Shown here: piece by piece, positions 1,658-55,153 of the stretch
How the letters are laid out: each line of letters opens with the position of its first letter
Position numbering within the stretch: the first letter of the stretch is position 1
Assembly: GCA_964588995.1 (NCBI GenBank)
Contig: CAZPQM010000002.1
Location: 155,020 to 219,019, forward strand
DNA: 64,000 bases
Direction of reading: 5' to 3'
DNA from: an uncultured Rickettsiales bacterium
GTDB lineage: Bacteria; Pseudomonadota; Alphaproteobacteria; Rickettsiales; UBA8987
Translations under genes and position numbers: made by a program
Notes under the pieces: generated by a model
What the model saw: only the letters and a program-made list of their open reading frames with translations
What the model was told of the DNA's origin: nothing
Databases searched by the model: none

Positions 1658-1858
1658 TTGGTAGAAATTACCGTAAGAGATAATAATGTGGATCAGGCAC
1701 TTCGCATCTTAAAGAAAAAGATGCAGCGCGAAGGCGTTTTTCGTGAGATGAAGCAACGTCGCTTCTATGAAAAACCGTCTGAGCGTCGTGTGCGTGAGAA
1801 GCAGGAAGCTATTCGACGTGCTCGTAAGCTCGCTCGTAAGCGCGCGGAGCATAGTTAG
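1658..1858 (+). CDS. rpsU: 30S ribosomal protein S21
   Basis: 66 aa, [31 protein letters not shown]..., TTG start. Confidence 0.9.
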
Positions 1859-2267
1859 GCTTTGATTCTTCTGGGCTGTTCTTATTCAAGAGCGGCCCAA
1901 ACCACTCCTCTATTACCCCTTCCTCTACATCTCTGAGTATCATAACGTCGTCCCGCAGCTGACAGTTCAGGGCGCCATGCCGCCATTGTAACTGCTCAAT
2001 ATGGCGGTGACACGATGCGATTCTTTCTTTGCGTTCAGAGCGGGAAATAACATCACAGGTTGTATATACGTGGACCGAGCTTTTATCAACGCGCTTCAAC
2101 GAAATGGCAGAATCCTGCAATAGCTGATGTAATTTATCAAGCGCAACCTCATACTTTAAATCCTCCTCCAAAAGGGATGATTGCATATTCTGAGAGGGCA
2201 AGTTAACCGTTTCATCCGCAAGCGCATATAGGTAGTCAATGCGTGCTATTTGGGTGCTTTTATTCAT
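1809..2267 (-). CDS. hypothetical protein
   Basis: Long ORF with start taken at [13 protein letters not shown] recognise no family. Its 3' end overlaps the rpsU 3' end by 50 nt antisense. Confidence 0.4.
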
Positions 2268-2395
2268 TGTCGTTACCTTTCTCCGTCCTTGGATACACAA
2301 CTAATAAGGGTAATTGGTCAAGGCAAGGAAATTTTTTAACTTGCAAATTTATAAACCCATTTTATAAGTAACAGTGCATATTGGAGATATGAAAT

Positions 2396-2569
2396 ATGTC
2401 TTATGATATAAAAGCTTTATCAATAACGCTCTTTTCGCTCATGCTTATTTGCTTATTCCTGCTGTTTACAGTAGTGACCGGAGAGAGTTTAGCATTCATG
2501 CATGCGATTGACGTATCGGATAGCCTGTTCGCCGCTTTTATTTCGGCTTTTCTGCTGTATAAACTCTAG
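2396..2569 (+). CDS. hypothetical small membrane protein (57 aa)
   Basis: ATG at 2396 lies 9 nt after GGAG (2383-2386). The product [57 protein letters not shown] has two hydrophobic segments. It is below the ORF-track size cutoff. Confidence 0.35.
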
Positions 2570-2577
2570 CTTAGCGC

Positions 2578-2606
2578 TTGCATTAGCGAATGATTACCGC
2601 TATATA
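2578..2606 (+). promoter_or_regulatory. putative sigma70-type promoter for rpmI-rplT
   Basis: TTGCAT (2578-2583), 17-nt spacer, TATATA (2601-2606). It lies about 95 nt upstream of rpmI. A CCCGCA/TGCGGG hairpin follows it. Confidence 0.3.
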
Positions 2607-2699
2607 TGTGCTCCCCGCATTTTTGTTTGCGGGCAGATAGTGCAGGCGTATGGCATGCCTAGCTATCATTCTGATCATATTACTTACAGGGAGTTAGAA

Positions 2700-2909
2700 A
2701 TGCCAAAAATGAAAACCAAGTCGAGCGCTAAAAAGCGCTTTTCCTTAACGGCAAAGGGTAAAGTAAAAGCCAGTCAGTCCGGAAAAAAGCACGGTATGGT
2801 CAAACGGACCAAGTCGCAGCTACGTAATCAGCGCGGTACGACCATTCTGTCTGAAGCGGATGCCAATATTGTACGGCAATTCCTGCCTTATCGTAAGAAA
2901 AACAATTAA
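2700..2909 (+). CDS. rpmI: 50S ribosomal protein L35
   Basis: [23 protein letters not shown]... preceded by AGGGAG. The longer ORF from 2502 is an unlikely N-terminal extension. Confidence 0.9.
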
Positions 2910-2939
2910 TTACCCTGTCGGACTTAAAGGAGAATTATC

Positions 2940-3365
2940 ATGGCACGAGCCAAAAACGGAACCGTAAACAAAAAACGTCATAAGAAAATTATCAAGATGG
3001 CCAAAGGCTATCGTGGCCGCGCGAAGAATTGCTACCGTACAGCGATTCAACGCGTTGAAAAAGCGCTACAGTATCAATATCGCGATCGCCGTACCAAAAA
3101 GCGTGATTTCCGCCGCCTGTGGATTGCACGGATCAATGCTGCTGTACGTCAGGAAGGGCTGAACTACTCGCAATTCATGCATGGTGTGAAGCAGGCCGGT
3201 ATTGAAGTGGATCGCAAAATTCTTGCAGAACTTGCCGTTTCCGAGCCGGCTGCGTTTAAATCACTGGTGGATGATGTGAAAAAAACGCTGGAGCAAACCG
3301 CAAAGGAAGCCCCGAAGGCGGCCAAAACAGCCGCTGAGAAAGAGCCGGTGAAGAAGGCGGCTTAA
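2940..3365 (+). CDS. rplT: 50S ribosomal protein L20 (Lys/Ala-rich C-terminal tail)
   Basis: [43 protein letters not shown], 141 aa. Confidence 0.92.
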
Positions 3366-3378
3366 GTTTTACATGTGT

Positions 3379-3531
3379 ACCTCCTCCTGTTTGCGGTGGA
3401 GGCAATGAGGCTTAGTGACGAAATTCACTTAGCTGCAATGGTGGGGGCAAGATGGCCCGAGCCCTCCCCATAAATCTAAGCGATGTTTCATCGCAAGATT
3501 TCTTGCCTCTCCCCAAGCAGGAGAGGAGGCA
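3379..3531. repeat. family-2 G/C-run palindromic MITE-like element (copy 1)
   Basis: Imperfect terminal inverted repeats: ACCTCCTCCTGTTTGCGGTGGAGGCA (3379-3404) and TGCCTCTCCCCAAGCAGGAGAGGAGGCA (3504-3531). It resembles the elements at 12888-13070 and 23296-23496. Confidence 0.6.
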
Positions 3532-3550
3532 TATAATATAGGGGTAAAGC

Positions 3551-4627
3551 ATGTCAGACGTAGCGCGTATTCTGGATGATGCGAAATCAGCGATTTCATC
3601 AAGTCAGTCACTGGATGACTTGGAAAAGATTCGCGTAAATTATCTGGGTAAATCCGGCGTTATTTCCGAACAGTTGAAAAGCCTGGGTAAGGCCCCGCCG
3701 GAGCAGCGCAAAGCGCTCGGGCAATCGCTGAATACCCTCAAGCAGGAGGTGCAAAGCCTTATTGAGTCCTCCCGTGCGCGGTTCGAAGAAGCGGCACTCA
3801 ACGCCCGTCTTGAGAAGGAATGGATTGACGTGACGCTCGATCCGCGCGAAGCGCAGCAAGGTACGATTCACCCGATTACGCAGGTCATGCAGGAGCTGAT
3901 CGCGATATTTGGTGCGCAAGGGTTTGAGATGGCCGAAGGGCCGGATGTGGAGGATGACTTCCATAATTTTACGGCGCTCAATATCCCGGAAGCCCACCCC
4001 GCACGGCAAATGCACGACACGTTTTATTTGCAAAGTGAAGATGGTGAAGCGCCGAATGTGCTGCGGACGCATACTTCTCCCGTACAAATTCGTGCGATGG
4101 AAGCGGGTAAGCCTCCGTTTCGGATTATCGCGCCCGGGCGGACCTATCGCTGTGATTCCGACCAGACACACACGCCTATGTTCCACCAGATTGAAGGGCT
4201 TTATATTGATAAGCATGTGACGATGGCGCAGCTGAAAGGGTGCTTGATTTCCTTTGTGGAAACCTTTTTTAATCTGGATGATGTGCCGGTGCGCTTCCGT
4301 CCGAGCTTTTTCCCCTTTACCGAGCCAAGCGCTGAGATGGATATCGGTTGCAAAAAAACCAAGCAGGAGCTGAAACTGGGTGAGGGCGATGACTGGTTGG
4401 AAATTCTCGGCTGCGGTATGGTGCATCCGAATGTGCTGAAAGCCGTGAATATCGACCCGGAGGAATATCAGGGCTTTGCCTTTGGTATCGGTATTGAGCG
4501 GCTCGCCATGCTGAAATATGGTATTGCGGATTTGCGCACCTTCTTTGATGCCGATAGCCGCTGGCTCGCGCATTATGGGTTTGCGCCCGAGGACGTACCA
4601 AGTTTGCAGGGGGGATTGGTTAAGTGA
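3551..4627 (+). CDS. pheS: phenylalanine--tRNA ligase alpha subunit
   Basis: 358 aa with class II aaRS motifs (FRPSFFPFTEPSAE, GFAFGIGIERLAML). Confidence 0.95.
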   Translation: MSDVARILDDAKSAISSSQSLDDLEKIRVNYLGKSGVISEQLKSLGKAPPEQRKALGQSLNTLKQEVQSLIESSRARFEEAALNARLEKEWIDVTLDPREAQQGTIHPITQVMQELIAIFGAQGFEMAEGPDVEDDFHNFTALNIPEAHPARQMHDTFYLQSEDGEAPNVLRTHTSPVQIRAMEAGKPPFRIIAPGRTYRCDSDQTHTPMFHQIEGLYIDKHVTMAQLKGCLISFVETFFNLDDVPVRFRPSFFPFTEPSAEMDIGCKKTKQELKLGEGDDWLEILGCGMVHPNVLKAVNIDPEEYQGFAFGIGIERLAMLKYGIADLRTFFDADSRWLAHYGFAPEDVPSLQGGLVK

Positions 4628-7011
4628 AATTCACGCTAAGCTGGTTGAAAGAGCATCTGGAAACGGATGCGACGTTAGAGCAGATTCTCGATCGTTTGAC
4701 AGCGCTCGGGCTTGAGGTCGAAGACGTGGTCAATCGCGGTGAGGCGCTGGCCGATTTTAAGGTCGCGAAAATAACTGAAGCGAAGCCACACCCGGATGCG
4801 GATAAATTGCAAGTCTGCAAAGTGGATGATGGCAATGAGTCGCTGCAAATTGTATGCGGTGCGCCGAATGCGCGGGCTGGTCTGACCGTCTGTCTTGCGC
4901 CGGTGGGGGTGCGGATTCCGGCCAATGATTTAAAGATCAAACCGGTCGAGATTCGCGGCGTCAAGAGTAACGGTATGTTATGCTCGGCAGCGGAAATTGG
5001 GCTTGGTGAGGATGCAGCCGGCATTATGGAGTTGGATGAGCAGCTACAGGCGGGAGCATCTTTTCCGGAGGCGACGGGGCTGGATGATCCGATCATTGAA
5101 ATTGCGATTACACCCAATCGTGGCGATTGCCTTGGTGTCTATGGCATTGCGCGCGATTTGGCGGCAAGCGGCTTGGGAGCGCTAAAGCCTTTGCCGAAGA
5201 CGCATATTCAGGCAACCGGGAAATCGCCTATCGAGGTTTCGATAGCATATACCGAAGGGTGCAGCCTTTTTCTTGGGCGCTATATCCAGGGTGTGAAAAA
5301 TGGTCCAAGCCCGAAATGGCTGAAAGATCGGCTGGAAGCGGTCGGCGCGAAGTCGATTTCGGCGCTGGTGGATGTCACGAATTATATGAGCCTGACCTAT
5401 GGCCGTCCGGCGCATGTGTTCGATGCGGATAAGCTCACGGGTGATATTGTGGTGCGTTCAGCAAAAGCGGGTGAGACCTACACGGGGCTGGATGAGGAGG
5501 AATATACGCTTGCGGACGGGATGGTGGTCGTAGCCGATGATAAGGGAACGCAGGCATTAGCCGGTATTTTAGGCGGTATGGATTCCGGCTCGTTTGACGA
5601 TACGACCAATGTGTTTCTGGAAATTGCGCAGTTTGACCCGATCAAAGTGGCACTCGCAGGGCGGGAATTGCAGATTGATTCGGATGCGCGCTATCGTTTT
5701 GAGCGTTCAGTCGATCACGGCTTTGCTGAAACCAGTATGGAGCTTGCAACGCAGATGATTCTGGAGTTGTGCGGCGGCGAAGCGAGCGAAGTGGTGATTG
5801 CGGGAAATTCAGAGGCTGAGCTGCGGACATTAACCTTTCGCCCTCAACGTATTAAAGACGTGCTAGGGGTTGAAATTGCGGAACAGGAAGTTAGTGATTA
5901 TCTTCAGCGCCTAGGGTTTGGCGTGGAAACGGCCGATCAAAGCTGGAAACTTACCATCCCAAGCTGGCGCGCCGATATTGCGATTGAGGAAGATATTATT
6001 GAGGAGGTTGCTCGCTTGCATGGCTATGATGCGATACCGACCGAGCCGTTGCCGCCAGTAATCCTTAAGCAAACCAGCCTTAGCCCCTCGCAGCGCAAGC
6101 GCTTTGATGTCAGCCGCGTGCTGGCGGGCAGGGGGCTGAAAGAAGCGGTTACGTTTTCGTTTGTTTCTTCCGAGGAAGCCAGACGTTTTGCCGAAAATGA
6201 TAATGTCCCGTTGCTTGCGAATCCAATCAGTTCGGAGCTGGATGCGCTCCGCCCTTCCGCGTTACCGCATTTACTGAGCGCGCAGCAGCGCAATCACGCC
6301 CGTGGATTAAGCGATGAGGCGCTCTTTGAAATCGGGCCGGTATTTTCCTCGCACCAGCCGGGTAAGCAGCAGCGCGTCGCCAGTGGCCTTCGTGCGGGTA
6401 AAGCGGCCAAAGCCTCGCCGCTAACGCAGGAGCGCGTGGTCGATGTGTTTGATGCAAAGGCCGATAGCTTGGCGGTGCTGGGTCAGTATGTTGCCACCGA
6501 TAATGTGCAGGTGACGCGCGAAGCGCCCGGCTATTACCACCCCGCGCGGAGTGGTGCGCTAACGCTTGGCAAGCAGGTGCTTGGCTATTTCGGTGAGCTG
6601 CATCCGGCCATTGTGAAGCAGTATGATCTGGAACATGCCGTTGCATTTGAGGTGTTTATGGATAACGCACCTATGCCAAAAGCGCGGAAATCAACGGCGC
6701 GACCGCTCTACAACCCGTCTAATTTGCAGCGTGTAAAGCGTGATTTTGCGTTTCTGGTGGATGCGCAACGTGAAGCGCAGGAAATCGTGCGTGCGCTCAA
6801 AAAGGTGGATAAAAATCTCATTCAGTCAGTGCATCTTTTTGATGTGTACTCGGGTGAGCATGTGCAAGCGGGTAAAAAATCCGTCGCATTTACCGTGACG
6901 ATCCAGCCAACGAAGGAAACGCTTAACGATGAGGCGATTAATGCACTGTCGGATAAGATCATAACCGCAGTCACGGAATCCACCGGCGGCATACTCCGCG
7001 ACGGGCGTTAG
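4624..7011 (+). CDS. pheT: phenylalanine--tRNA ligase beta subunit
   Basis: 795 aa. GTG start overlaps the pheS stop (GTGA). It has tRNA-binding, B3/4, B5 and FDX-ACB-like regions. Confidence 0.95.
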   Translation: MKFTLSWLKEHLETDATLEQILDRLTALGLEVEDVVNRGEALADFKVAKITEAKPHPDADKLQVCKVDDGNESLQIVCGAPNARAGLTVCLAPVGVRIPANDLKIKPVEIRGVKSNGMLCSAAEIGLGEDAAGIMELDEQLQAGASFPEATGLDDPIIEIAITPNRGDCLGVYGIARDLAASGLGALKPLPKTHIQATGKSPIEVSIAYTEGCSLFLGRYIQGVKNGPSPKWLKDRLEAVGAKSISALVDVTNYMSLTYGRPAHVFDADKLTGDIVVRSAKAGETYTGLDEEEYTLADGMVVVADDKGTQALAGILGGMDSGSFDDTTNVFLEIAQFDPIKVALAGRELQIDSDARYRFERSVDHGFAETSMELATQMILELCGGEASEVVIAGNSEAELRTLTFRPQRIKDVLGVEIAEQEVSDYLQRLGFGVETADQSWKLTIPSWRADIAIEEDIIEEVARLHGYDAIPTEPLPPVILKQTSLSPSQRKRFDVSRVLAGRGLKEAVTFSFVSSEEARRFAENDNVPLLANPISSELDALRPSALPHLLSAQQRNHARGLSDEALFEIGPVFSSHQPGKQQRVASGLRAGKAAKASPLTQERVVDVFDAKADSLAVLGQYVATDNVQVTREAPGYYHPARSGALTLGKQVLGYFGELHPAIVKQYDLEHAVAFEVFMDNAPMPKARKSTARPLYNPSNLQRVKRDFAFLVDAQREAQEIVRALKKVDKNLIQSVHLFDVYSGEHVQAGKKSVAFTVTIQPTKETLNDEAINALSDKIITAVTESTGGILRDGR

Positions 7012-7121
7012 CAACGAATTATGAGCTAACGCGTTTTACAGCCAGATGCAGGTGGCCAACAACGTTCTCATTTCACCCCTTTATTTGAGGGAGAAAACAT
7101 TGAGTCTATTGTAGTAAACTT

Positions 7122-7147
7122 AGCCTAATTAATAGCTTAATTAGGCT
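7122..7147. terminator. AT-rich hairpin between convergent pheT and ntrX (possible bidirectional terminator)
   Basis: AGCCTAATTAA-TAGC-TTAATTAGGCT forms an 11-bp perfect stem. There is no clear U-tract, and it overlaps the ntrX stop codon. Confidence 0.35.
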
Positions 7148-8574
7148 GTAGCTAGTTCTTTCTCAGCAGCTTCGGCGGCTTCGGAGTCTTTTTCTTCGAA
7201 GACGTTCAAGGATTTCAGTTTGCGGTGAAGTGCTGAACGTTCCATGCCGATAAAGCTCGCCGTGCGCGAAATGTTCCCGCCGAAACGGTTGATCTGCGCA
7301 GTGAGATATTGCCGCTCGAATACTTCCCGCGCTTCGCGGAGCCGCATCGACAAAATATCCGAATTCGTTTCCGGTGTCATCAGTGCGGGTGTAGTCGAGA
7401 ATACCTCCTGCGGCAGCATTTCCGAGGTTACCGGACCGTCTTCATCTGCAGGGCACATAATCAGCAGCCATTCAATCACGTTGCGGAGCTGGCGGAGATT
7501 ACCCGGCCAGTTATAAGCCTGAAGTGCCGCCATTGCATCGGGTGATAAATCGCGCGGCTGTAGCTTTGAGGTTTCCGCCGCATGAGCGAGCAGGCAATCG
7601 CAGATCAGCGGTATATCTTCGCGGCGTTCTTTAAGAGAAGGCGCTTCAAGCGGCACGACATTGAGCCGGTAATAGAGATCCTCGCGGAAATTACCTTTGC
7701 TGATCTCCTCTTTTATATCCTTATTAGTCGCGGAAATAACGCGCACATCGGCGTGCATTTGCTTACGTCCGCCGACACGTTCGAAATTACCGTCCTGCAG
7801 GAAACGTACGAATTTGCCTTGCGTGGTTGACGGGATGTCCGTAACTTCATCGATATAGAGTGTGCCACCATGCGCCTGTTCGAATACACCGACTTTCCGT
7901 GGGGGCGCGTTTAAATCCTCGCTGTCTTCGGTGCCAAAGAGCTCATGGTCCACCATATCGGTACCGAGCGTGCCGGCATTGAGCACGACAAACGGACCGG
8001 ATTTGCGGTTGGATTTCGCATGGATAGAGCGCGCGATCATTTCCTTGCCACTTCCTGCCGGACCGTTGATGAAGATGCGGCTACCGGTCGGCGCGACACG
8101 CTCGATTGACTGGCGAAGCTGCGTTACGGCAGCCGAGTCGCCGATGAGCAGGTTGATGCTGCCGGTTTTGAGCTTGAGCTCCTGATTTTCCTTTTTGAGT
8201 GACATAGCTTCAATGGCGCGGTCGACCGTATGAACGAGCCGGTCTTCCTTGAATGGCTTTTCGATATAGTCATATGCGCCCATTTTGAGCGAGCTGATCG
8301 CCGTTTCGATATTACCATGCCCACTGATGATAATCACCGGAGTGGACGGGTATTTCCGTTTGACGGTTTCCAATATACCTAAGCCATCCAGCGCACTGTC
8401 TTTCAGCCAGATATCAAGAATCAACGCATCGGGAATCTGTTCGGCAAGCGAAGCAAACGCCTCGTCACTGTTCTTCCCTGACTGCGTTTTATACCCTTCG
8501 TCTTCCAGAATGTCACAGATGAGCTCGCGAATATCTTGCTCATCATCAATTACGAGAACTGTTTTCCCCTGCAT
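7141..8574 (-). CDS. ntrX: NtrX-type response regulator (REC + AAA+ + HTH)
   Basis: 477 aa. Receiver domain (VLVIDDEQDIRE..DIWL), AAA+ (GPAGSGKE), C-terminal Fis-type HTH. It lies downstream of ntrY. Confidence 0.88.
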   Translation of the reverse strand: MQGKTVLVIDDEQDIRELICDILEDEGYKTQSGKNSDEAFASLAEQIPDALILDIWLKDSALDGLGILETVKRKYPSTPVIIISGHGNIETAISSLKMGAYDYIEKPFKEDRLVHTVDRAIEAMSLKKENQELKLKTGSINLLIGDSAAVTQLRQSIERVAPTGSRIFINGPAGSGKEMIARSIHAKSNRKSGPFVVLNAGTLGTDMVDHELFGTEDSEDLNAPPRKVGVFEQAHGGTLYIDEVTDIPSTTQGKFVRFLQDGNFERVGGRKQMHADVRVISATNKDIKEEISKGNFREDLYYRLNVVPLEAPSLKERREDIPLICDCLLAHAAETSKLQPRDLSPDAMAALQAYNWPGNLRQLRNVIEWLLIMCPADEDGPVTSEMLPQEVFSTTPALMTPETNSDILSMRLREAREVFERQYLTAQINRFGGNISRTASFIGMERSALHRKLKSLNVFEEKDSEAAEAAEKELATA

Positions 8575-10923: not shown

Positions 10924-12228
10924 CTAATCATCCCCGACTTTGAGCGCGGCAATAAAAGCGGATTGCGGGATTTCCACATTGCCAAAGCTGCGCATCTTTT
11001 TCTTTCCCTTTTTTTGCTTTTCTAGCAGCTTTTTCTTGCGGGATATATCACCGCCATAACATTTCGCGGTTACGTCCTTCCGCATCGCGCTCACCGTCTC
11101 ACGCGCGATGATCTTACCACCGATCGCGGCTTGTATGGCGATTTTGAAGAGCTGGCGCGGGATTAAATCCTTCAGCCGGGCGCAGAGTGCGCGGCCACGC
11201 GGCTCCGCCTGCGAGCGGTGGACAATCATAGAGAGCGCATCAACCGGTTCCTGATTCACCAGAATCGAGACTTTCACCAGATCGCTTTCTTCATAGCCGG
11301 TGATTTCCCAGTCAAAACTGGCATAGCCGGAGGTGACCGATTTCAGCCGGTCGTAAAAGTCAAACACCACCTCGTTGAGTGGTAGTTTATACACCGCCAT
11401 TGCTCGGTTGCCGACATAGGTGAGGTTCTGCTGCTGCCCGCGCTTTTTGGTGCAGAGGTCAAGCACCGCGCCGAGATAGTCATCAGGCACCAGAATCGTT
11501 GCCTTGATCCACGGTTCTTCCATTGACTCGATATGAATCGGGTCGGGCATATCGGCCGGGTTATGCAGTTCTATCGTTTGAGCCGGACTGTCCTTGGTTT
11601 TTTTCATATGCAGTTTGTAAATCACGCTCGGCGCGGTAGTGATCAGGTCGATACCGAACTCACGCTCGAGCCGCTCCTGAATGATTTCCAAATGCAACAG
11701 ACCAAGGAAGCCACAACGAAAGCCGAGGCCAAGTGCGGCGGAAGATTCCTGCTCGAATTCGAAACTTGCATCGTTCAGATTGAGCTTCTCCATCGCATCG
11801 CGCATATCGTCGAACTGGTCGGCATCGGTCGGGAACAGCCCGCAGAATACGACCGGCAAGTTCGGTTTGAAGCCGGGTAGGGGTGTCTCTACCGGGTTGC
11901 TCGCATCGGTGATGGTATCGCCGACTTTGGCATCGCTGACCTGCTTAATCGACGCATTAATATAGCCGATTTCACCGGGGCCAAGCGTCTTAACCGAGGT
12001 TTTTTTCGGGCTGAAAATACCAACATCGTCTATGAGGTATTCCGCGCCGGTATTGACCATGCGCATCTTCATACCTTTTTTGAGCTCACCGGAAAACACG
12101 CGCACCAGCACAATGACACCGAGATAAGTGTCGTACCAGGAATCAACGAGTAGTGCTTTGGTTTGCATATCGCAGGGAGTATAGAGGGTTGGAAGTGGAG
12201 AGTCGAGCAGTTTGAGAGGGGTTGTCAT
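10924..12228 (-). CDS. lepA: elongation factor 4 (LepA), C-terminal fragment (domains II-V + CTD)
   Basis: [21 protein letters not shown]...[23 protein letters not shown]...[23 protein letters not shown] is unmistakable EF4. It has no G domain. The ATG lies inside a repeat terminus. Confidence 0.85.
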
Positions 12229-12507
12229 CGTGAATTTATTCCGGGTATTTTCATCGGCGCAATGGATACGGACAGGCTGTAAGACCCTCGAGTCATATAT
12301 TCGTCATTACGAGCGCAAGCGAAGTAATCTCCTTCTGATATCCTCCTGCCCCAGATTGCTGTGCTCCCCGCTGGTCGCTCACTATGACGGAATATATCGT
12401 CATCGCCCGAGGTGCGAAGCAGCTATAGGGCGATCCATCTCACCATCTACAACCCAGCCTCGCCATAGATTACCTTATAATTCGCATGCGCGCATTCGGG
12501 TAATGAC
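12222..12507. repeat. block of about three family-1 (CGTCAT...ATGACG) palindromic MITE-like units interrupting lepA
   Basis: Unit 12302-12390 (CGTCATTACGAGCG...CACTATGACGG). Unit 12398-12507 (CGTCATCGCCCGAGG...GGGTAATGAC). Partial unit about 12222-12300, which shares the 12-mer CCCGGAATAAAT plus GATGAC with the copy at 52081-52103. Confidence 0.7.
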
Positions 12508-12530
12508 TGGGCGATTGGAATGGCGTCAGG

Positions 12531-13274
12531 TTAGCGCTCGATAGGTGCCGGCAAGCGCTCGACGATGGCTTGCAGTAATTCTGCAATTCCCTGCCCGGTT
12601 TTGGCCGAAACTTCAATCGCATCGCTCGCATCAATGCCGATCACATCCTCGATCTGCGCTTTCACGCGCTCCGGCTCGGCGGAGGGGAGGTCGATCTTAT
12701 TCAGCACGACAATGATTTCATGGTCGTTCTCAATCGCCTGATAGACATTCGCCAGCGTCTGCGCTTCCACCCCTTGTGAGGCATCGACCACCAGCAACGA
12801 ACCTTCACACGCCGCTAAACTGCGGCTGACCTCATAACCGAAATCCACATGGCCGGGTGTGTCCATCAGGTTGAGGATGTACGTGCCGGGTTCGGGGTGC
12901 CCCCCCTTAATCCCCCCCGCAGGCGGGGGGGAGATAGAAGGATTGACTGCAGGCGGGGGGGAGATAGAAAGAGTATCGGATGGCGCTGGGAAGCTATTCT
13001 TTAACTCCTCCTCCCGTTTACGGGGGGAGGTTGGGAGGGGGGCTTCGTTATTGTTTTCAAGGGTGGAGTTATACTCATACTCGAGCCGTACCGTTTGGGA
13101 CTTGATGGTAATCCCGCGCTCGCGCTCAATATCCATATTGTCGAGCACCTGCTCTTTCATTTCGCGGTCAGTCAGGCCGCCGCATTCCTGAATCAGCCGG
13201 TCAGCCAGCGTGCTTTTGCCGTGATCAATATGGGCAATGATGGAAAAATTACGGATGCGTGTGATATCGGTCAT
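12531..13274 (-). CDS. lepA: elongation factor 4 (LepA), N-terminal GTPase-domain fragment with internal insertion
   Basis: [32 protein letters not shown]. It ends LPAPIER*. Its frame differs from the C-terminal fragment (305-nt offset). Confidence 0.85.
12888..13070. repeat. family-2 G/C-run palindromic element inserted in frame in the lepA G domain (copy 2)
   Basis: C7-GCAGGC-G7 hairpin. 21-nt direct repeat GCAGGCGGGGGGGAGATAGAA at 12919-12939 and 12949-12969 (30-nt period). CCTCCCGTTTACGGGGGGAGG hairpin. It translates as ...[52 protein letters not shown]. Confidence 0.7.
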
Positions 13275-27025: not shown

Positions 27026-27104
27026 GCTTATGTCATAGCGTGAAGTTAAAGTGCTATCCAGTGAATATTTGCAAAATGCATACTGCGCTCGTTGCTGGTA
27101 GCAT

Positions 27105-47624: not shown

Positions 47625-49016
47625 ATGGAAGAAAATAAGCTCTTGGTCACGTCTCCCTCCAAAGGTGAGACCATTGAAACACTGACCAGAAAGGACTGGA
47701 GCGAAGTCAGCGATATGATGGATAAGGCGCTTAAAGCGTTTCGGGAAAAGGCGTATCCGGCTCATGAGAGAATGAAATGGCTGCGCAGTTTTCAGGCGAA
47801 GTTACAGGACGAGCAGGAGGGTGCGGCGCTGATGATTGCGCGGGAGGGCGGTAAGCCGCTAAAGGACGCTAGAGCGGAAGTAGCACGGGCAATCAATGGG
47901 GTGGAGCTTGCCATCAGCGAGATGTATCACCTGGGCGGGACGGAAATACCGATGGGAATGACCAGGCCGTCCGAAAACCGCCTTGCCTTTACGACGTATG
48001 AACCCATCGGGCTGGTTGTAGCGATTTCTGCCTTTAACCATCCGGTTAATCTGATTATCCACCAAGTGATTCCCGCGATTGCAACGGGTTGCCCGGTCAT
48101 CATCAAGCCCGATAGCCGCACGCCACTTTCTGCGAAGCGTATTGTTGAGTTGTTACATGCTGCGGGTGTGCCGGAAGCGTGGTGTCAGTTTGTGGTGTGT
48201 GGGCACGAAGCATCGGAGAATATGGCGACCGATGACCGCACGGCCTTTGTCACGTTCATCGGTTCGGAGCGCGTCGGCTGGGAGCTTAGGTCCAAAATTG
48301 CACCCGGAACGCATATCGCGCTGGAACATGGCGGTACGGCTCCGGTGGTGATGGATAAAAGTGCCTCTGCGGAAACGATTGAAGCGATGATCCCCAAGCT
48401 GGTTAAGGGCGGGATGTATCATGCCGGGCAGGTATGCGTTTCGGTGCAGCGGGTTTATGTGCATGCGAGCCTGATAGGGGCGGTGACGGAGCAATTGCAG
48501 CAGGCGGTGAATGAACTGGTTGTTGGCGATGCGGAAGACGAAAAGACGGATGTGGGCCCCATCATTGATGAAAAGGCGCTTAAGCGCATCGACGACTGGG
48601 TGCAGGAAGCGCTAGAGGAGGGGGCTGAACTCGTTTGCGGCGGCCAGAAGCGGGGAGAGTTTTTCTATGAGCCGACTATTTTACTGAACCCTTCGGATCA
48701 TGCCAGAGTAACAACGGATGAAATCTTTGGCCCGGTGATCTGCCTCTACAGTTATGAGACGGAGGATGAGGTCATTTACCGCGTGAACGATACTGATTAT
48801 CTGTTTCAGGCGGCGGTGATGGGCGATCATCATGAAACGCTGATGCGGCTTGCGAAACGAATTCGTACCCGCGCGGTGATGATTAACGATCATACGGCGT
48901 TTCGGGTGGACTGGATGCCCTTTGGCGGTGCAGGCAAGTCAGGACTTGGTACAGGCGGTATCGGCTACACCATGCGTGATATGCTCCTTGAGAAGCTGTT
49001 CATAACGGGGTGCTGA
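47625..49016 (+). CDS. aldehyde dehydrogenase family protein
   Basis: 463 aa. LEHGG (compare ELGG), GQVCVSVQR (catalytic Cys), EIFGPV. Confidence 0.88.
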   Translation: MEENKLLVTSPSKGETIETLTRKDWSEVSDMMDKALKAFREKAYPAHERMKWLRSFQAKLQDEQEGAALMIAREGGKPLKDARAEVARAINGVELAISEMYHLGGTEIPMGMTRPSENRLAFTTYEPIGLVVAISAFNHPVNLIIHQVIPAIATGCPVIIKPDSRTPLSAKRIVELLHAAGVPEAWCQFVVCGHEASENMATDDRTAFVTFIGSERVGWELRSKIAPGTHIALEHGGTAPVVMDKSASAETIEAMIPKLVKGGMYHAGQVCVSVQRVYVHASLIGAVTEQLQQAVNELVVGDAEDEKTDVGPIIDEKALKRIDDWVQEALEEGAELVCGGQKRGEFFYEPTILLNPSDHARVTTDEIFGPVICLYSYETEDEVIYRVNDTDYLFQAAVMGDHHETLMRLAKRIRTRAVMINDHTAFRVDWMPFGGAGKSGLGTGGIGYTMRDMLLEKLFITGC

Positions 49017-49053: not shown

Positions 49054-49132
49054 CGTTATCGCGAACGAAGTGAAAGCGATCTCAGGCCGTGGCGTTACGC
49101 ATTAGATTGCTTCGTATAAGCCCGCAATGACG
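49054..49132. repeat. family-1 palindromic repeat unit
   Basis: CGTTATCGCGAACGAAGTGAAAGCGATCTC...AGATTGCTTCGTATAAGCCCGCAATGACG, between convergent genes. Confidence 0.7.
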
Positions 49133-49140
49133 CAGCTGGC

Positions 49141-51261
49141 CTACTTTTCCGCAGCAATGCGTTCATACGCCTCTTTGTTATCGTCCAGGTAGTTGATCAG
49201 GGCGGCGACGATGCGTCGCTGGTATTTCGTACCAACCTGCTCCAGCATCATATCAAGCGCTTCGTCTTTCGATAGTGGCTCGCGGTAAGCGCGCGGGCTG
49301 ACCATGGCGATAAACGCATTGGCTACACGAATAATGCGTGAGGTAAGGAGAATATCATCACCCTGCAGGCCAAGCGGGCCGCTGCCATCCCAGTTTTCAA
49401 GGCTTTGGGCAAGCGTCTCCGCGAGGGGGCCGTCAAAATCGATACCGTCGATCAGATCGGCGCTTTTGAGGATGGATTCGCTGATTTCCTGCTTCTCTTT
49501 TGCGTTGAGCTTAGTTTTCTTAGTCAACAGCTTTTGCGGCAGATACATTTTACCGAGATTCATCAGCTTGGCGGCCTTCACGGTCGTACGCACTGTTTTT
49601 TCATCTAACTCCATCGCTTCGGCAATAGCACCGGCCAGCTCGGCCACACGGCTGGAATGATGGGAGGCGTAGGGGTCGCGGAGGTCAATCGCCTCCACCA
49701 GCATGTTAATCATATTATTGAGCGCACCCTCACGTTTTTCACGCTCGTCAACGGCGGTGCTGATATCCTGATCGACCACAAGGACGCCCGTGCTATGCTC
49801 TTTCTCAGCGATGATGGAAGGGATTTCGGCAAGTGGAATATATTTCGTCTGGAAGAAATGCTGCAAGCCGTCGCCTTCCTTGCGGCTATTGATACGGATC
49901 AGCTGTTTGCCTTTGCCTTTAAGCTGTTTATTTATGCTCTTATAGGGCTCGGCCTTGCTTGGGCCCATCACATTATCAATCGGCTTGGCAATAATATCTT
50001 CAGGCTCGACCGGCATGTAGCGGCACGTTGCTTTGTTGGCAAAGCGGAGGATATTGTCCTCATCGAGGATGAACATCGAATCCGGCTGGTTTTGCGAGAT
50101 AAGCTCCAGCAGCATGCCCTGACTTTCATGTTGCTTGGCGAGTTTGCGGTAGCGTTCGGCCTCGCGGGCGATACGCAGGGAAATACCGTGTTTCCAGAAT
50201 ACAAGGATGGTCAGGAGGATAGCGGTTGTCAGCAGAATCGCGATAACAATCAGGCTGTTGCGGCGTTCTATGCTTTCGGCCATCGCCTCTTTCCAGCTGA
50301 TGGTATGGATAAGATACCACGGCGTTTGCGAGATCAGGCGACCGGTAATGAGGACCCTCCCTCCCTGATAATTGCGGGCATCATAGCCAAAGGCGTTTGG
50401 GTTTTCGGCAACAAAACGCGCGTCAAGCTGCTGATTATCCAGAGTAAGTTTGCGGAATAACGGCTTGGTACCATCCTGCAGTGGTGACAAGTAGTGCGCG
50501 ACATTATTCTGAACCGAGACCAGATAGGTCTCTTCCGTGTGAGTCGGTGTTTCGGGATATTCCAGCAGCGGGTAGAGGCTATTGCTCAGCGTGCGTATGC
50601 CGATGATGCCGCCAATCACATTTTCCGGGAGTGGGTCGGTCTGTATGCCATAAACGGGTACGTAAAACGCGATGCTAGGCTGCCCGTTTACCCCTTCATA
50701 AATCTGAGAAATATGGTAATTCTGATCTCTATGTGCCTTTTGCAGAAACTCCCGATGCATACCGGTAAGCGGTGGCATGTTTTCGCTTGCGAGCAGCACG
50801 CTATGTTCGGTATCGACGACGGCGATGCCGCTTGCGCCTGAAGCCGGGATATTCGCGCGGATATTCCCCGGTCGGGGGTCTGCGGCGAAGCCCGTGCGCT
50901 GCGCGGTGGCGTTAATATAATTACGGAGATAAGTATATTCGGCCTGTGCGTCCTGTACCGTGTTATCGTCCTCCTCCGCCAGAATGATCTCGCTCATATA
51001 GAGCTGCAGACTCATATTCTCTGACATATTACGTAGCTCGGTCAATTGTTCGCTCAGCCAGTCCGACACGTTATCCGCGCGGATATTGGCGGTTGTTCCA
51101 AGGCGCAATTCCCAGTTATGCAGGTCGCGTTGAAATTCTTTATCCGCATACACGAATGCGGCATAAATCAGGCCAAACGCTGCCAGCAATAGCAGGATCA
51201 CGGTATAAACCAATTTGCTGGCGTGTTCTTTTGGTTGCGTTTCGGCAGCTTGTTCGCTCAT
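49141..51261 (-). CDS. membrane sensor: TM - Cache-like periplasmic domain - TM - PAS - degenerate HD-GYP domain
   Basis: The start is taken at MSEQAAETQ. TM helices flank a segment of about 315 aa. The C-terminus aligns to the HD-GYP pattern but reads HHSSRVA / AAKLMNLGK / SLENWDGSGPLGL / RVANAFIAM. Confidence 0.75.
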   Translation of the reverse strand: MSEQAAETQPKEHASKLVYTVILLLLAAFGLIYAAFVYADKEFQRDLHNWELRLGTTANIRADNVSDWLSEQLTELRNMSENMSLQLYMSEIILAEEDDNTVQDAQAEYTYLRNYINATAQRTGFAADPRPGNIRANIPASGASGIAVVDTEHSVLLASENMPPLTGMHREFLQKAHRDQNYHISQIYEGVNGQPSIAFYVPVYGIQTDPLPENVIGGIIGIRTLSNSLYPLLEYPETPTHTEETYLVSVQNNVAHYLSPLQDGTKPLFRKLTLDNQQLDARFVAENPNAFGYDARNYQGGRVLITGRLISQTPWYLIHTISWKEAMAESIERRNSLIVIAILLTTAILLTILVFWKHGISLRIAREAERYRKLAKQHESQGMLLELISQNQPDSMFILDEDNILRFANKATCRYMPVEPEDIIAKPIDNVMGPSKAEPYKSINKQLKGKGKQLIRINSRKEGDGLQHFFQTKYIPLAEIPSIIAEKEHSTGVLVVDQDISTAVDEREKREGALNNMINMLVEAIDLRDPYASHHSSRVAELAGAIAEAMELDEKTVRTTVKAAKLMNLGKMYLPQKLLTKKTKLNAKEKQEISESILKSADLIDGIDFDGPLAETLAQSLENWDGSGPLGLQGDDILLTSRIIRVANAFIAMVSPRAYREPLSKDEALDMMLEQVGTKYQRRIVAALINYLDDNKEAYERIAAEK

Positions 51262-51325
51262 GGATATCCCTTTTTGCAGGTTATACGCTTGGCGGAAAAG
51301 ATAATTGCGATTAGAATTCCGTGCA

Positions 51326-51949
51326 ATGAATTTGTTACATCTTACCATCGCTACAGTCTTATTATTCAGCATGCTGGCGCCGGATGCTGCGCTCGCGACG
51401 CCGCGGCTGTTTGATACGCTGGAGCGGCGTTCACAGCGCCTCAGCCCGTTCCCAAAATGGCTGGATATGCTGGAGCGTTATGAAGAGGAGGTAACGGCGA
51501 GCATGCCGTGCCAGCGGAGTAAAGAGTGCCGCCTGCGGAAATGGAACCAGTTCTTAATCACGCTCAAGGATAAAGATTTTCTTACGCAGATTACGCAGGT
51601 GAATGCGTTTCTGAATGCGGAGCCCTATATTACCGATCCGGTGAATTGGGGGTTGCCGGATTACTGGGCGACACCGTATGAATTTCACATTAAGGACGGT
51701 GACTGCGAGGACTATTCGATTGCGAAATATATGTCGCTGAAAAAGCTTGGTGTACCCGAAGATGATATGCGCATTGTCGTGCTAAAGGATGAAAACCTGC
51801 GTATTCACCATGCCGTGCTGGCCGTTTACCGTGGGGATGATATTTTTATCTTAGACAATCAGATTAAAGAAGTGATAAAACATACTGAAATTGCTCATTA
51901 TAATCCGATTTACTCTATTAACGAGAGCTACTGGTGGCGGCATCGGTGA
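51326..51949 (+). CDS. periplasmic transglutaminase-like cysteine protease (BTLCP / LapG family)
   Basis: Signal peptide MNLLHLTIATVLLFSMLAPDAALA. Motifs GDCEDYSIAKY (Cys), HHAVLAV (His) and ILDN (Asp). Confidence 0.8.
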   Translation: MNLLHLTIATVLLFSMLAPDAALATPRLFDTLERRSQRLSPFPKWLDMLERYEEEVTASMPCQRSKECRLRKWNQFLITLKDKDFLTQITQVNAFLNAEPYITDPVNWGLPDYWATPYEFHIKDGDCEDYSIAKYMSLKKLGVPEDDMRIVVLKDENLRIHHAVLAVYRGDDIFILDNQIKEVIKHTEIAHYNPIYSINESYWWRHR

Positions 51950-52015: not shown

Positions 52016-52103
52016 CGTCATCCCCGACTTGTTCGGGGATCCAGAGCCACATGCAGTGTCTGTAACGTTTCGCCTGAGATCCCGGAATAAATCCGGGATG
52101 ACG
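52016..52103. repeat. family-1 palindromic repeat unit
   Basis: CGTCATCCCCGACTTGTTCGGGGATCC...GATCCCGGAATAAATCCGGGATGACG. Confidence 0.75.
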
Positions 52104-52209: not shown

Positions 52210-52626
52210 TTATACATCCCGCTTGAGGTGATAGCCGCGTGTCATGAAGCCTTCCCGTTTGAACAATGCCTGCGCCGGTGCGTTTTCGATATAGGTATCG
52301 GCGAGCATGCAGTCGCAATTGAGCCGTTTGGCTTCGGCCTTCATCCAATCGAGCATTTCCAGCGCGGCGCCTTGCTTGCGACAGGCTTTATCGACGACAA
52401 GATTATCGATATGCAGGTATTTACCGCAATATAAGCGACGTCCAACCCGAAATCCGGAAATCCCAATAATGCGGCCTTCATCCTCAAGCATAATCAGGCG
52501 ATAGCCCTGCTCCATCATTTCACGGATATAGGCAGTATATTGCCCGATGGGTATCTCATAAAGTTGATAGGCAATCGGATAGGTTGCTTCGATCGCGTCT
52601 TGTGTCGTGGCTTCGCTGATCTGCAT
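52210..52626 (-). CDS. GNAT family N-acetyltransferase
   Basis: VVDKACRKQGAALEMLDW (acetyl-CoA motif A-like), 138 aa. Confidence 0.8.
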   Translation of the reverse strand: MQISEATTQDAIEATYPIAYQLYEIPIGQYTAYIREMMEQGYRLIMLEDEGRIIGISGFRVGRRLYCGKYLHIDNLVVDKACRKQGAALEMLDWMKAEAKRLNCDCMLADTYIENAPAQALFKREGFMTRGYHLKRDV

Positions 52627-53182: not shown

Positions 53183-55153
53183 TTATGCGGGTATACGCGC
53201 TTCCTGTTCCAGTGTAGTGACAAATTCTTCTAAATCAATGACTTCCTGCCCCTGCTGACCTAAACGGCGTACCGAAACAGTGCGATCCTGTTGCTCACGC
53301 GCACCTACTGCCAGTATAAGCGGAACTTTCGCATTGGAATGCTCACGTACTTTATAGTTAATTTTTTCGTTACGTAAGTCAATATCTACACGTAAGCCTT
53401 TACTGATCAGTGTTTGCTGCACTGCTTTCGCATAATCGTCAAATTCGTTCACAATCGGCGCAACGACCGCATGGGTAGGCGCAAGCCATAGGGGAAATTT
53501 TCCAGTGTAATGCTCAATGAGAATACCGAGGAATCTCTCAAATGAGCCCAAAATAGCGCGGTGCAGTAAGACAGGGTGATGTTTTGCGCCATCCTGACCG
53601 ATATAATTTGCATCTAACCGTTCAGGCATCACGAAGTCGAGCTGTAAGGTGCCGCACTGCCAATCCCGACCGATAGCATCACGCAGATGAAACTCCAGCT
53701 TTGGCCCATAAAATGCACCTTCGCCCGGTGCGGTACGATATTCAAGCCCAGCTTCATGTACTGCTTTCGAAAGCGCGTCCTCAGCCTTATCCCATACCCC
53801 ATCATCGCCTGCACGGGTTTCGGGTCGTGTGGCAAATTTAACGGCAATATCAGTAAAGCCAAGCTGCTCGTATACTTCTTGCACCAGATTACAGAATGAT
53901 ACGGTCTCGGAGCCAATCTGTTCTTCGGTGCAAAATATATGACCGTCATCCTGCAACATCGCGCGTACGCGCATGAGTCCGTGCAGTGCGCCAGATGGCT
54001 CGTTACGGTGGCAATGGCCAAACTCCGCCATGCGAACCGGTAAGTCTTTATAGCTGGTAATACCTTGATTGAAAATCTGTACCGCGCCCGGGCAACTCAT
54101 TGGCTTGATAGCCAAGGTGCGATCTTCGTCTGAGTCGGTGGTAAACATATTCTCGCGGAATTTGTCCCAATGGCCTGATTTCTCCCACAGCGTACGATCC
54201 ACGAGTAAGGGTGTCTGCACTTCTTGATAGCCATTTAGTTTGATTTTGCGGCGGATATATTCCTGAAGCGTGCGATAAAGCGTTAATCCACGGTCGTGCC
54301 AGAAAACCTGCCCAACCGCTTCTTCCTGCATATGAAAAAGGTTCATCTCGCGTCCAAGTTTGCGGTGATCGCGCTTTTCGGCTTCTTCAATCTGATGCAG
54401 ATAGGCTTTAAGCGCTTTTTTATCCGGCCACGACGTTCCGTAAATGCGTTGCAGCATTTCATTTTTGGAATCGCCCTTCCAGTAGGCGCCGGCAAGCTTG
54501 GTCAGCTTGAAGGCCTCGCTGACTTTGCCGGTAGACGCTACATGCGGACCCCGGCAGAGATCCATGAACGCATCGTCTCCTTCTCCCTGACGGTAGAGTG
54601 AGATTTTGCCTTTTTCTGTGGTATCATCTTCCGGCGCATTGCGGATAATATCGGCTTTATAGTGTTCGCCGCGCTTTTCAAAAAAGGCGATGGCTTCATC
54701 GCGATCCCACATTTCGCGGCGGACGGGTAAATCTTCCCGGATGATTTCCTGCATGCGCTTTTCAATGCGTTCAAAATCATCGGTGGAAATGGCATTATCG
54801 GCGGCTACATCGTAGTAAAACCCGTGTTCGATAGTGGGGCCGATTGCCAGTTTCGATTTGGGAAACAATTCTTTGACTGCACGAGCCAGCACCTGTGCCG
54901 TGGTCGTGTGGCGCATAATTTCAAGGCCTTCTTCATCCTTGAGCGTCAAAATCGCGACTTCGGCATCTTCTTCGATGGGAAGGTAAATATCACGCTGTTC
55001 ACCGTTTACTTTGACAGCTACAGCCGCTTTTGCGAGGCCGGGCCCGATATCGGCGGCAATATCCGCTCCGCTTACCGGGTGATCGTAGCTGCGGGTAGAA
55101 CCATCAGGAAGGGTGATGTTGATCGGATGTGACTGCGCTTGAGGGCTCGGCAT
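53183..55153 (-). CDS. thrS: threonine--tRNA ligase
   Basis: 656 aa with TGS (ITLPDGS), editing domain, class II core ([20 protein letters not shown]) and anticodon-binding domain. Confidence 0.95.

Follow-up and report, generated by a model that had tools for sequence, protein, structure and literature searches.

A 64-kb stretch of contig CAZPQM010000002.1 from an uncultured Rickettsiales bacterium (referred to here, in its entirety, as the window) carries two adjacent, divergently transcribed genes. One encodes a membrane-bound sensor ending in a degenerate HD-GYP domain, and the other encodes a periplasmic cysteine protease of the BTLCP family, to which LapG belongs. A sequence-only reading of this DNA had proposed that the pair is an analogue of the LapD/LapG system in which a noncatalytic HD-GYP receptor controls a LapG-like protease, and had added that no LapG partner of this type had been described. 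The proposal is supported, and has been shown experimentally for the homolog in Desulfovibrio vulgaris; the addition does not hold, because the receptor DvhD was described in 2024 (PMC10990149) and its structures followed in 2026 (PMC13090378). The window pair is a divergent relative of this already published DvhD/DvhG switch, so that the idea was right but not new.

The two genes, the region between them, and the predicted parts of their products are as follows.

49141..51261, minus strand: DvhD-like receptor gene, 706 amino acids (aa), with the order transmembrane (TM) helix, dCache, TM helix, PAS, degenerate HD-GYP (open reading frame, Pfam and PDB matches)
51145..51213, minus strand: TM helix 1, residues 17-39, inside the hydrophobic stretch 13-41 (hydropathy scan)
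50257..51144, minus strand: periplasmic dCache domain, residues 40-335, 296 aa (AlphaFold2 model, Foldseek, hhalign)
50194..50256, minus strand: TM helix 2, residues 336-356, inside the hydrophobic stretch 334-360 (hydropathy scan)
49828..50109, minus strand: cytoplasmic PAS domain, residues 385-478 (Pfam PAS_4/PAS/PAS_9, TIGR00229; aligns to the PAS domain of 9RC0)
49216..49704, minus strand: degenerate HD-GYP domain, residues 520-682 (Pfam HD_5, E = 1.2e-31; alignments to 4MCW and 9RBZ/9RC0)
51262..51325, no strand: divergent intergenic region, 64 nt, or 43 nt with the TTG start of the protease (sequence)
51326..51949, plus strand: DvhG/LapG-like periplasmic cysteine protease (BTLCP), 207 aa (Pfam Peptidase_C93)
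51326..51397, plus strand: putative signal peptide MNLLHLTIATVLLFSMLAPDAALA (hydropathy, and an AxA-type site between ALA and TP read from the sequence)
51701..51712, plus strand: D126-C127-E128-D129, the catalytic Cys flanked by calcium-binding Asp and Glu (invariant column)
51809..51811, plus strand: catalytic His162 (invariant column)
51854..51856, plus strand: catalytic Asp177 (invariant column)

Both genes lie where the sequence-only reading had placed them, and every motif it had quoted is present in the translations (GDCEDYSIAKY, HHAVLAV, and ILDN in the protease; LMNLGK, SLENWDGSGPL, and ANAFIAM in the sensor). Counted from its first ATG, the open reading frame (ORF) of the sensor spans 49141..51372 on the minus strand. 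The ATG at 51261 (MSEQAAE..., 706 aa) is the likely start, because it agrees with the 706-aa public protein P0001 and with the N termini of homologs. For the protease, the public gene call begins at the TTG at 51305 (21 nt earlier; 214 aa, P0012). The spacing of about 65 nt that had been given for the two starts is therefore right for the ATG codons, which lie 64 nt apart, and shrinks to 43 nt with the public TTG start. A promoter scan of the intergenic region returned a single promoter-like match, on the plus strand at 51289-51317, that was no better than chance.

Homology to DvhD and DvhG

Karbelkar et al. (PNAS 2024) renamed the D. vulgaris protein DVU1020 as DvhD, which has a large periplasmic domain, a PAS domain, and a predicted-inactive HD-GYP domain, and whose gene adjoins that of the LapG-like protease DvhG (PMC10990149). 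Structures are available for its periplasmic dCache domain (9RC2), its PAS/HD-GYP region (9RC0), and its HD-GYP domain with cyclic di-GMP (c-di-GMP) bound (9RBZ), all from Font et al. (Nat Commun, April 2026; PMC13090378). The window sensor has the same DvhD-type order of TM helix, periplasmic dCache, TM helix, PAS, and HD-GYP, with exactly two hydrophobic stretches in the hydropathy scan. Its last 219 aa match 9RC0 (E = 1.6e-34) and 9RBZ (E = 8e-33), followed by the active HD-GYP proteins 5Z7C (E = 4e-18) and 4MCW (E = 7e-16). A profile of three homologs covers both the PAS and the HD-GYP domain of 9RC0 (E = 5.3e-67), and over residues 300 to 693 the sensor is approximately 30% identical to ten Desulfovibrionales DvhD orthologs. 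Pfam and NCBIfam models detected no LapD_MoxY_N, HAMP, GGDEF, or EAL domain in the sensor; what they did find was PAS and HD_5, in line with the earlier statement that the divergent neighbor is not a GGDEF/EAL protein.

The periplasmic part of the sensor is more diverged. None of the Pfam Cache models matched it at E <= 0.1, and phmmer with the periplasmic domain alone did not reach the Desulfovibrionales DvhD proteins. An AlphaFold2 model of residues 40 to 335, made from a three-sequence alignment (pLDDT 77, pTM 0.76), had the DvhD periplasmic domain 9RC2 as its best PDB match in Foldseek (E = 2.9e-9, TM-score 0.68/0.78), followed by a long list of dCache sensor domains, namely the ligand-binding domains of chemoreceptors and kinases. 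The N-terminal helix of the model is split into three segments (H2-41, H44-58, and H63-84), as described for DvhD, and hhalign of the N-terminal 345 residues against Desulfovibrionales DvhD gave a probability of 99.3% (E = 2e-20; 300 columns, 16% identity). The model thus assigns the domain a dCache fold. The Cache-like domain of the sequence-only reading stands in this respect, although it measures 296 aa and not the 315 aa estimated there, and it has no Pfam Cache match.

Two short motifs stand out in the broken N-terminal helices of this domain: NMSLQLY (residues 82-88, at about nt 50998-51018) and YLRN (residues 111-114, at about nt 50920-50931). Both, the former as NxSLQLY, are invariant in four aligned homologs and also appear in a 79-member clade consensus, and the "RN-L" portion aligns with Desulfovibrionales DvhD. 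They are candidate protease-docking residues, because an AlphaFold 3 model places the DvhG protease on helix alpha1' in this region of the DvhD dCache domain (PMC13090378).

The protease is more readily recognized. Pfam Peptidase_C93 (PF06035) matches it with E = 1.1e-19 and 71 bits against a cut-off of 27, and it matches the LapG structures 4FGO (E = 8.9e-23) and 4U65_E (E = 3.5e-19). It is approximately 42% identical to the Desulfovibrionales DvhG orthologs and 35 to 38% identical to the two LapG structures. No variation occurs in the D-C-E-D motif, H162, or D177 among 73 clade members, 9 orthologs of DvhG from Desulfovibrionales, and both LapG structures. In DvhG, the D316A/E318A and C317A variants are inactive, and the flanking Asp and Glu are calcium ligands (PMC13090378). 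Together with an N terminus that looks like a signal peptide by hydropathy, these matches agree with the earlier description of a signal-peptide-bearing BTLCP with a Cys/His/Asp signature. The NCBIfam equivalog model for LapG (NF045674) scores the protein below its cut-off (96 versus 320 bits), and we assign the protease to the LapG family of BTLCPs, not to LapG sensu stricto. Taken together, the matches indicate that the window pair is homologous to DvhD/DvhG across all domains.

The metal site of the HD-GYP domain was compared by aligning the sensor with the active enzyme PmGH (4MCW) in phmmer. We take the metal ligands of PmGH to be E185, H189, H221, D222, H250, H276, H277, and D305 (numbering after Bellini et al. 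2014). The corresponding residues of the window sensor are listed below.

PmGH E185: window Y531
PmGH H189: window H535 (retained)
PmGH H221: window M567
PmGH D222: window N568
PmGH H250 (third His): window S596
PmGH H276: window S620
PmGH H277: window L621
PmGH D305 (final Asp): window N648

A single ligand, H535, survives out of eight. The assignment of the HD and HH ligands agrees with that of Font et al. (PMC13090378). The signature of an active HD-GYP domain (an H...HD...H...HH...D metal site plus GYP) is absent from the window domain, and the tyrosine of the GYP motif is deleted, as it also is in 34 of 78 clade members. The replacements themselves are conserved among the relatives described below: position 568 is Asn in 77 of 78 and position 648 is Asn in 75 of 78, which points to substitutions that are old and conserved in the clade. 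The domain is predicted to be noncatalytic, because without its metal site it should be unable to hydrolyze a nucleotide; the degeneracy that had been read from the motifs alone is thus upheld by the ligand count. DvhD, for its part, showed no c-di-GMP hydrolysis with any metal tested (PMC13090378).

Despite the loss of the metal site, most of the nucleotide contacts known from DvhD are still in place. With DvhD residues numbered from the 9RC0 sequence and their roles taken from PMC13090378, we find that Y523, P567, L577, K582, M646, R650, Y652, and R653 are retained as window Y531, P575, L585, K590, M653, R657, Y659, and R660, and that K520 and R569 are changed conservatively, to R528 and K577. 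The R650A, P567T, and Y652A/R653A mutations of DvhD abolish stabilization by c-di-GMP, and M646A/K520E has a weaker but clear effect (PMC13090378). Every DvhD position at which mutations impair c-di-GMP stabilization or dimerization is kept in the window sensor (K520 as Arg), and the R-x-Y-R motif, P575, and the lysine of GK are near-invariant across the clade. Judged by these residues, the sensor is likely to bind a cyclic dinucleotide.

Distribution and surroundings of the pair

Word-indexed homolog searches returned only 2 to 3 full-length relatives, and we used pattern scans of genome contigs and exhaustive HMMER searches instead. A pattern scan of one genome per species yielded 80 loci with full-length sensors, belonging to Alphaproteobacteria (Rhodospirillales, Thalassospiraceae, Magnetovibrio blakemorei) and to Gammaproteobacteria (Thiogranum, Thiohalobacter). 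Two metagenome loci were added, and the sensors of the resulting 82 related loci are at 30 to 44% identity. In 73 of these loci the gene immediately upstream of the sensor encodes a BTLCP, and because 5 of the 9 exceptions have no room for one on the contig, the pair occurs in 73 of 77 loci with room; the co-occurrence that the sequence-only reading had called for is therefore present. In 29 of the 73 pairs, all of the alphaproteobacterial type, the genes are divergent as in the window, and in the other 44, mostly from Gammaproteobacteria, they are co-directional. Since the pairing is kept despite a changed gene order, a functional link is favored over a merely inherited operon.

Two loci that lack the pairing have other genes in its place. 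In locus L226, a 208-aa ORF (1770-2396, plus strand) with no Pfam family and no similarity to BTLCPs sits at the BTLCP position, upstream of the sensor gene (2539-4713), and the sensor itself has a sub-threshold match to Pfam dCache_1 (E = 4e-6). In locus L217, from a metagenome-assembled genome (MAG) of Stellaceae, the sensor gene (5575-7839) is divergent from a gene for a 443-aa protein (4254-5585, minus strand) that is not a BTLCP and has a weak, sub-threshold EAL match (E = 4e-5; 23.5 versus 31.3 bits).

Searched exhaustively with HMMER, the periplasmic domain by itself reached 601 representative clusters at E <= 1e-3, of which 330 had E <= 1e-10 and 147 had E <= 1e-30. The lengths among the matches listed were mostly 680 to 740 aa, suggesting that a single architecture predominates. 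Supplementary Data 1 of Font et al. holds 78 DvhD homologs, mostly from Desulfovibrionales and including those of the marine Alphaproteobacteria Sneathiella, Kiloniella, Pelagibius, Fodinicurvata, Denitrobaculum, and Oceanibacterium (PMC13090378). Magnetovibrio, Thiogranum, Thiohalobacter, and names beginning with Rhodospirill do not occur in the supplements of that paper (PMC13090378), and Thalassospiraceae are likewise missing from its 78 homologs. Among the matches listed in a motif-based scan, two groups could be told apart: a Desulfovibrionales type that aligns over its full length to DvhD and only C-terminally to the window sensor, and a window type for which the reverse is true. The window sensor is one member of a large group of DvhD-like receptors, a clade whose hosts are Alpha- and Gammaproteobacteria.

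As for the organism, the best matches of its threonyl-tRNA synthetase (thrS, 53183-55153) are to "Rickettsiales" MAGs (68%), Caenispirillum/Azospirillaceae (65%), and Sneathiella (63%). By this protein it is a deep-branching alphaproteobacterium with no close relative in the one-genome-per-species collection. All four window proteins that were found in a public collection are singletons there at 90% identity.

In several alphaproteobacterial relatives, adhesin or secretion genes accompany the pair. A giant gene convergent to the sensor gene follows it directly in L014, L019, and L076, where it is complete (1973 to 2269 aa), and in L006 and L071, where it is cut by the end of the locus. All three giant proteins tested (L014, L019, and L076) contain RTX repeats. 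The model for the LapA retention module matches those of L014 and L076 below its threshold (35 versus 50 bits), that of L019 has a sub-threshold BapA-prefix match (23 versus 35 bits), and a TAAG site is found at residue 354 in L014 and at residue 330 in L019. ABC and membrane fusion protein (MFP) genes of a type 1 secretion system (T1SS) are present in loci L013, L016, and L030. Because adhesin or T1SS genes lie beside the pair in several relatives, the clade overall looks like a Lap/Dvh-type adhesin system, and the regulatory pair in the window would be a copy that has become separated from the rest. Lap and Dvh systems commonly include unlinked second adhesins, DVU1545 and Pseudomonas aeruginosa CdrA being examples.

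The nearest neighbors of the pair in the window are the following.

47625-49016: aldehyde dehydrogenase
52210-52626: GNAT acetyltransferase

The immediate neighbors also include infC, thrS, pqiA, bamE, rpmF, and plsX, and none of the neighbor genes of the window recurs beside the pair in the relatives. Two minus-strand ORFs at 8.6 to 12.2 kb (743 and 434 aa) were considered as the ABC and MFP components of a T1SS and rejected, since their products are NtrY and a C-terminal portion of LepA. The window also contains a palindromic repeat of the form GTCAT-stem (5-6 bp)-loop-stem-ATC, with 4 strict copies where shuffles give an expectation of 0.24.

12399-12435: strict hairpin copy
27032-27058: strict hairpin copy
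52017-52041, plus strand: strict hairpin copy
52078-52102, minus strand: strict hairpin copy

Looser copies occur as well, among other places near 49100-49130 on the minus strand and near 12300. This hairpin family is probably the "family-1" repeat by which the sequence-only reading had seen the pair bracketed on both sides. On the right that description fits, with the two clear hairpins at 52017-52041 and 52078-52102 lying inverted to each other a short way past the end of the protease gene, but on the left (49054-49132) there are only degenerate look-alikes, and neither a repeat search nor blastn-short found similarity between the two flanks. We also found no signs of a mobile cassette. A cassette flanked on both sides by a single repeat family was considered and rejected: the flanks are dissimilar, the hairpin is clear on the right only, GC content is unremarkable, and the neighbor genes of the window do not recur beside the pair in relatives. 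A riboswitch or other regulatory RNA near the pair was likewise rejected, as no Rfam family (tRNA, riboswitch, or small RNA) reached its gathering score anywhere in the 64 kb.

Elsewhere in the window, lepA (10924-13274, minus strand) looks interrupted. The ORF with its G domain (12531-13274) ends in "...ERLPAPIER*", the remainder (10924-12228) is in another frame, and the approximately 300 nt between them (12229-12530) hold GTCAT...ATC palindromic hairpin units. The G domain also contains an in-frame, Pro-rich insertion of approximately 55 aa with a 30-nt tandem repeat (12919-12978). The gene could be a pseudogene, a split gene, or a coding gene into which a repeat element has inserted, as with Rickettsia palindromic elements.

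Mechanism and rival explanations

DvhD rescues biofilm formation in a c-di-GMP-dependent manner in a Pseudomonas fluorescens delta-lapD delta-lapG chassis and, in the reconstituted system, controls DvhG-dependent cleavage of the adhesin (PMC10990149). It binds c-di-GMP with a dissociation constant of about 0.1 to 0.3 uM (PMC10990149, PMC13090378), that of its cytoplasmic fragment being about 0.3 uM (PMC10990149), and it does so at a canonical and a bridging site, with the nucleotide splaying the stalk helices (PMC13090378).

We consider it probable that the window pair is an inside-out switch of this DvhD/DvhG type. The receptor would be an inner-membrane dimer whose metal-less HD-GYP domain binds c-di-GMP without hydrolyzing it, at the old active-site pocket and probably also at a site that bridges the two HD-GYP domains. 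If the crystal structures of DvhD are a guide, binding would splay the stalk helices between PAS and HD-GYP, and the change would travel via the PAS domain and the TM helices into the periplasm, where the dCache domain would restrain the secreted, calcium-dependent BTLCP protease. At low c-di-GMP, the freed protease would cut the N-terminal retention module of a type-1-secreted giant adhesin at [T/A/P]AAG, and the cell would leave the surface. Three points are inferred from the analogy with DvhD/DvhG: that this protein binds a nucleotide, that receptor and protease make contact, and what the protease cuts, the window having no gene for a substrate.

Several observations weigh against this reading. 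One of the closest relatives (L226; 43% sensor identity; a complete 2.1-Mb "Rickettsiales" MAG chromosome) has no BTLCP gene beside its sensor gene, which is placed between genes for a pyridoxal phosphate enzyme and for cytochrome bc1. The periplasmic domain is only approximately 16% identical to the DvhD dCache domain, and a conserved protease-docking surface therefore cannot be assumed; in D. vulgaris itself, direct DvhD-DvhG binding rests on an AlphaFold 3 model (PMC13090378). Two nucleotide contacts of DvhD are affected in the window sensor: Y621, the GYP tyrosine that contacts the phosphodiester, is deleted, and the guanine-specifying E668 has no clear equivalent, as different alignments place Q675 or V676 opposite it. 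Finally, adhesin, T1SS, GGDEF, and EAL genes are all absent from the 64-kb window, whose genes around the pair are housekeeping genes. A linked T1SS (ABC, MFP, and TolC-like components) with a giant retention-module adhesin bearing a [T/A/P]AAG site is thus not found within the 64 kb.

Were the receptor to work mainly outside-in, its dCache domain would bind a periplasmic small molecule, the PAS/HD-GYP module would relay this signal or integrate it with c-di-GMP as a coincidence detector, and the protease would be a co-regulated accessory. Ligand sensing is the typical role of dCache domains, and after 9RC2 the window domain matches chemoreceptor and kinase ligand-binding domains best in fold; the authors of the DvhD structures left a periplasmic ligand possible (PMC13090378), and loci L226, L217, L030, and L054 are without an adjacent BTLCP gene. 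We nevertheless regard this as unlikely, given that the pairing is kept in 95% of the loci with room and across two gene orders, that neither an enzymatic nor a DNA-binding output is present in the cytoplasmic module, and that the homolog DvhD controls DvhG in response to intracellular c-di-GMP (PMC10990149). The outside-in and inside-out directions are, moreover, compatible with each other. It is hardly credible that the protein is a signal-regulated c-di-GMP phosphodiesterase with an ordinary, active HD-GYP domain, and no more than a neighbor of the protease gene. Pfam HD_5 and HD do score above threshold, and the best NCBIfam match is to a phosphodiesterase family model, NosR (109 bits), but the cut-off of that model is 400 bits. 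Seven of the eight PmGH ligands have become non-ligand residues that are conserved as such (N568 and N648, in the proportions given above), and DvhD, with the same class of substitutions, was the protein found inactive with every metal (PMC13090378).

A DvhDG-like module could also read another nucleotide, for example, 3'3'-cyclic GMP-AMP (3'3'-cGAMP) or pGpG, given that conservation fails at the GYP tyrosine and at the guanine-specifying glutamate. In addition to the deletion of Y621 and the uncertain equivalent of E668, DvhD itself binds 3'3'-cGAMP, about 5-fold more weakly than c-di-GMP (PMC13090378), and the next-best solved relative of the window domain, 5Z7C, is a cGAMP-specific HD-GYP protein. 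All mutation-validated c-di-GMP contacts are kept, however, the column aligned to E668 is Glu or Asp in 54 of 78 clade members (in a region where the alignment is unstable), and the window gives no evidence of a cGAMP synthase; a different nucleotide thus seems quite improbable. The remaining alternative, that the pair is functional but its protease cuts a substrate in this genome that is not LapA-like, arises because the pair is detached from any adhesin/T1SS locus. There is no ORF longer than 800 aa and no T1SS gene from 49 kb to the left of the pair to 12 kb to its right, and most gammaproteobacterial loci with a 10-kb flank also lack a neighboring giant gene. Such a substrate is improbable in our view, as the unlinked second adhesins cited above are normal in Lap/Dvh systems, the active-site and calcium motifs of the protease are unchanged, and the window covers about a quarter of a 252-kb contig. 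Combining the two, it is doubtful that the module has shifted to another nucleotide (such as 3'3'-cGAMP) or to a substrate other than a T1SS adhesin in the subclade whose members, like the window pair, have no GYP tyrosine and lie apart from any adhesin locus; if it had, this would be a functionally distinct variant of the Lap/Dvh logic.

The HD-GYP-based replacement for LapD, which until now had been studied in sulfate reducers alone, is thus seen to have a distant sister clade. This clade is widespread among marine and groundwater Alpha- and Gammaproteobacteria, shows two conserved gene orders, and is often linked to RTX adhesins. It provides a natural sequence panel for the nucleotide-binding residues, in which the GYP tyrosine appears dispensable in about half of the members, and for locating the periplasmic surface on which the protease docks, with the NxSLQLY and YLRN helices as candidates. 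For the window locus itself the benefit lies in annotation, where the two proteins would be better named a DvhD/DvhG-like c-di-GMP receptor and an adhesin-processing protease than "HD-GYP phosphodiesterase" and "transglutaminase-like protein."

Comparison with known systems

The closest known system is DvhD (DVU1020/BfsD) and DvhG (DVU1019/BfsG) of D. vulgaris Hildenborough (Nitratidesulfovibrio). The two receptors share their domain order, the same class of metal-ligand losses, and the same mutation-validated c-di-GMP contacts, and the two proteases share their D-C-E-D/H/D motifs and their place beside the receptor gene. Like most DvhG orthologs, the window protease has a (putative) signal peptide, and unlike DvhG of D. 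vulgaris it has neither a TM anchor nor a 180-aa linker. The systems also differ in the actual replacements (HD to MN and HH to SL in the window, HD to SQ and HH to MN in DvhD), in the GYP tyrosine (deleted in the window sensor, present as Y621 in DvhD), in gene order (divergent versus co-directional), and in genomic setting, since DvhD/DvhG share an operon with an adhesin and a T1SS and the window pair does not. The window sensor falls in a clade separate from the Desulfovibrionales proteins.

LapD/LapG of P. fluorescens and Legionella pneumophila (4U65, 4FGO) follows the same logic, with a degenerate c-di-GMP-metabolizing domain serving as an inside-out receptor over a calcium-dependent periplasmic BTLCP. 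LapG is homologous to the window protease at the level of identity given above, whereas LapD is unrelated to the window receptor, which is without the LapD_MoxY_N, HAMP, GGDEF, and EAL domains.

The active HD-GYP proteins PmGH (4MCW/4MDZ), PA4781 (4R8Z), and the Vibrio cholerae cGAMP phosphodiesterase 3 (5Z7C) have their fold in common with the window domain, as well as the scaffold of the nucleotide pocket (GK, P, R-x-Y-R, and DG-G-P), whereas the window domain has other residues at seven of the eight metal-ligand positions and lacks the GYP tyrosine. On the periplasmic side, the dCache domains of KinD (4JGO), McpH (8BMV), PctB (5LT9), and DctB (3E4O) show the same bilobed, tandem PAS-like fold with a long N-terminal helix. 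Unlike these domains, that of the window protein has no Pfam dCache match, and its N-terminal helix is segmented as in DvhD.

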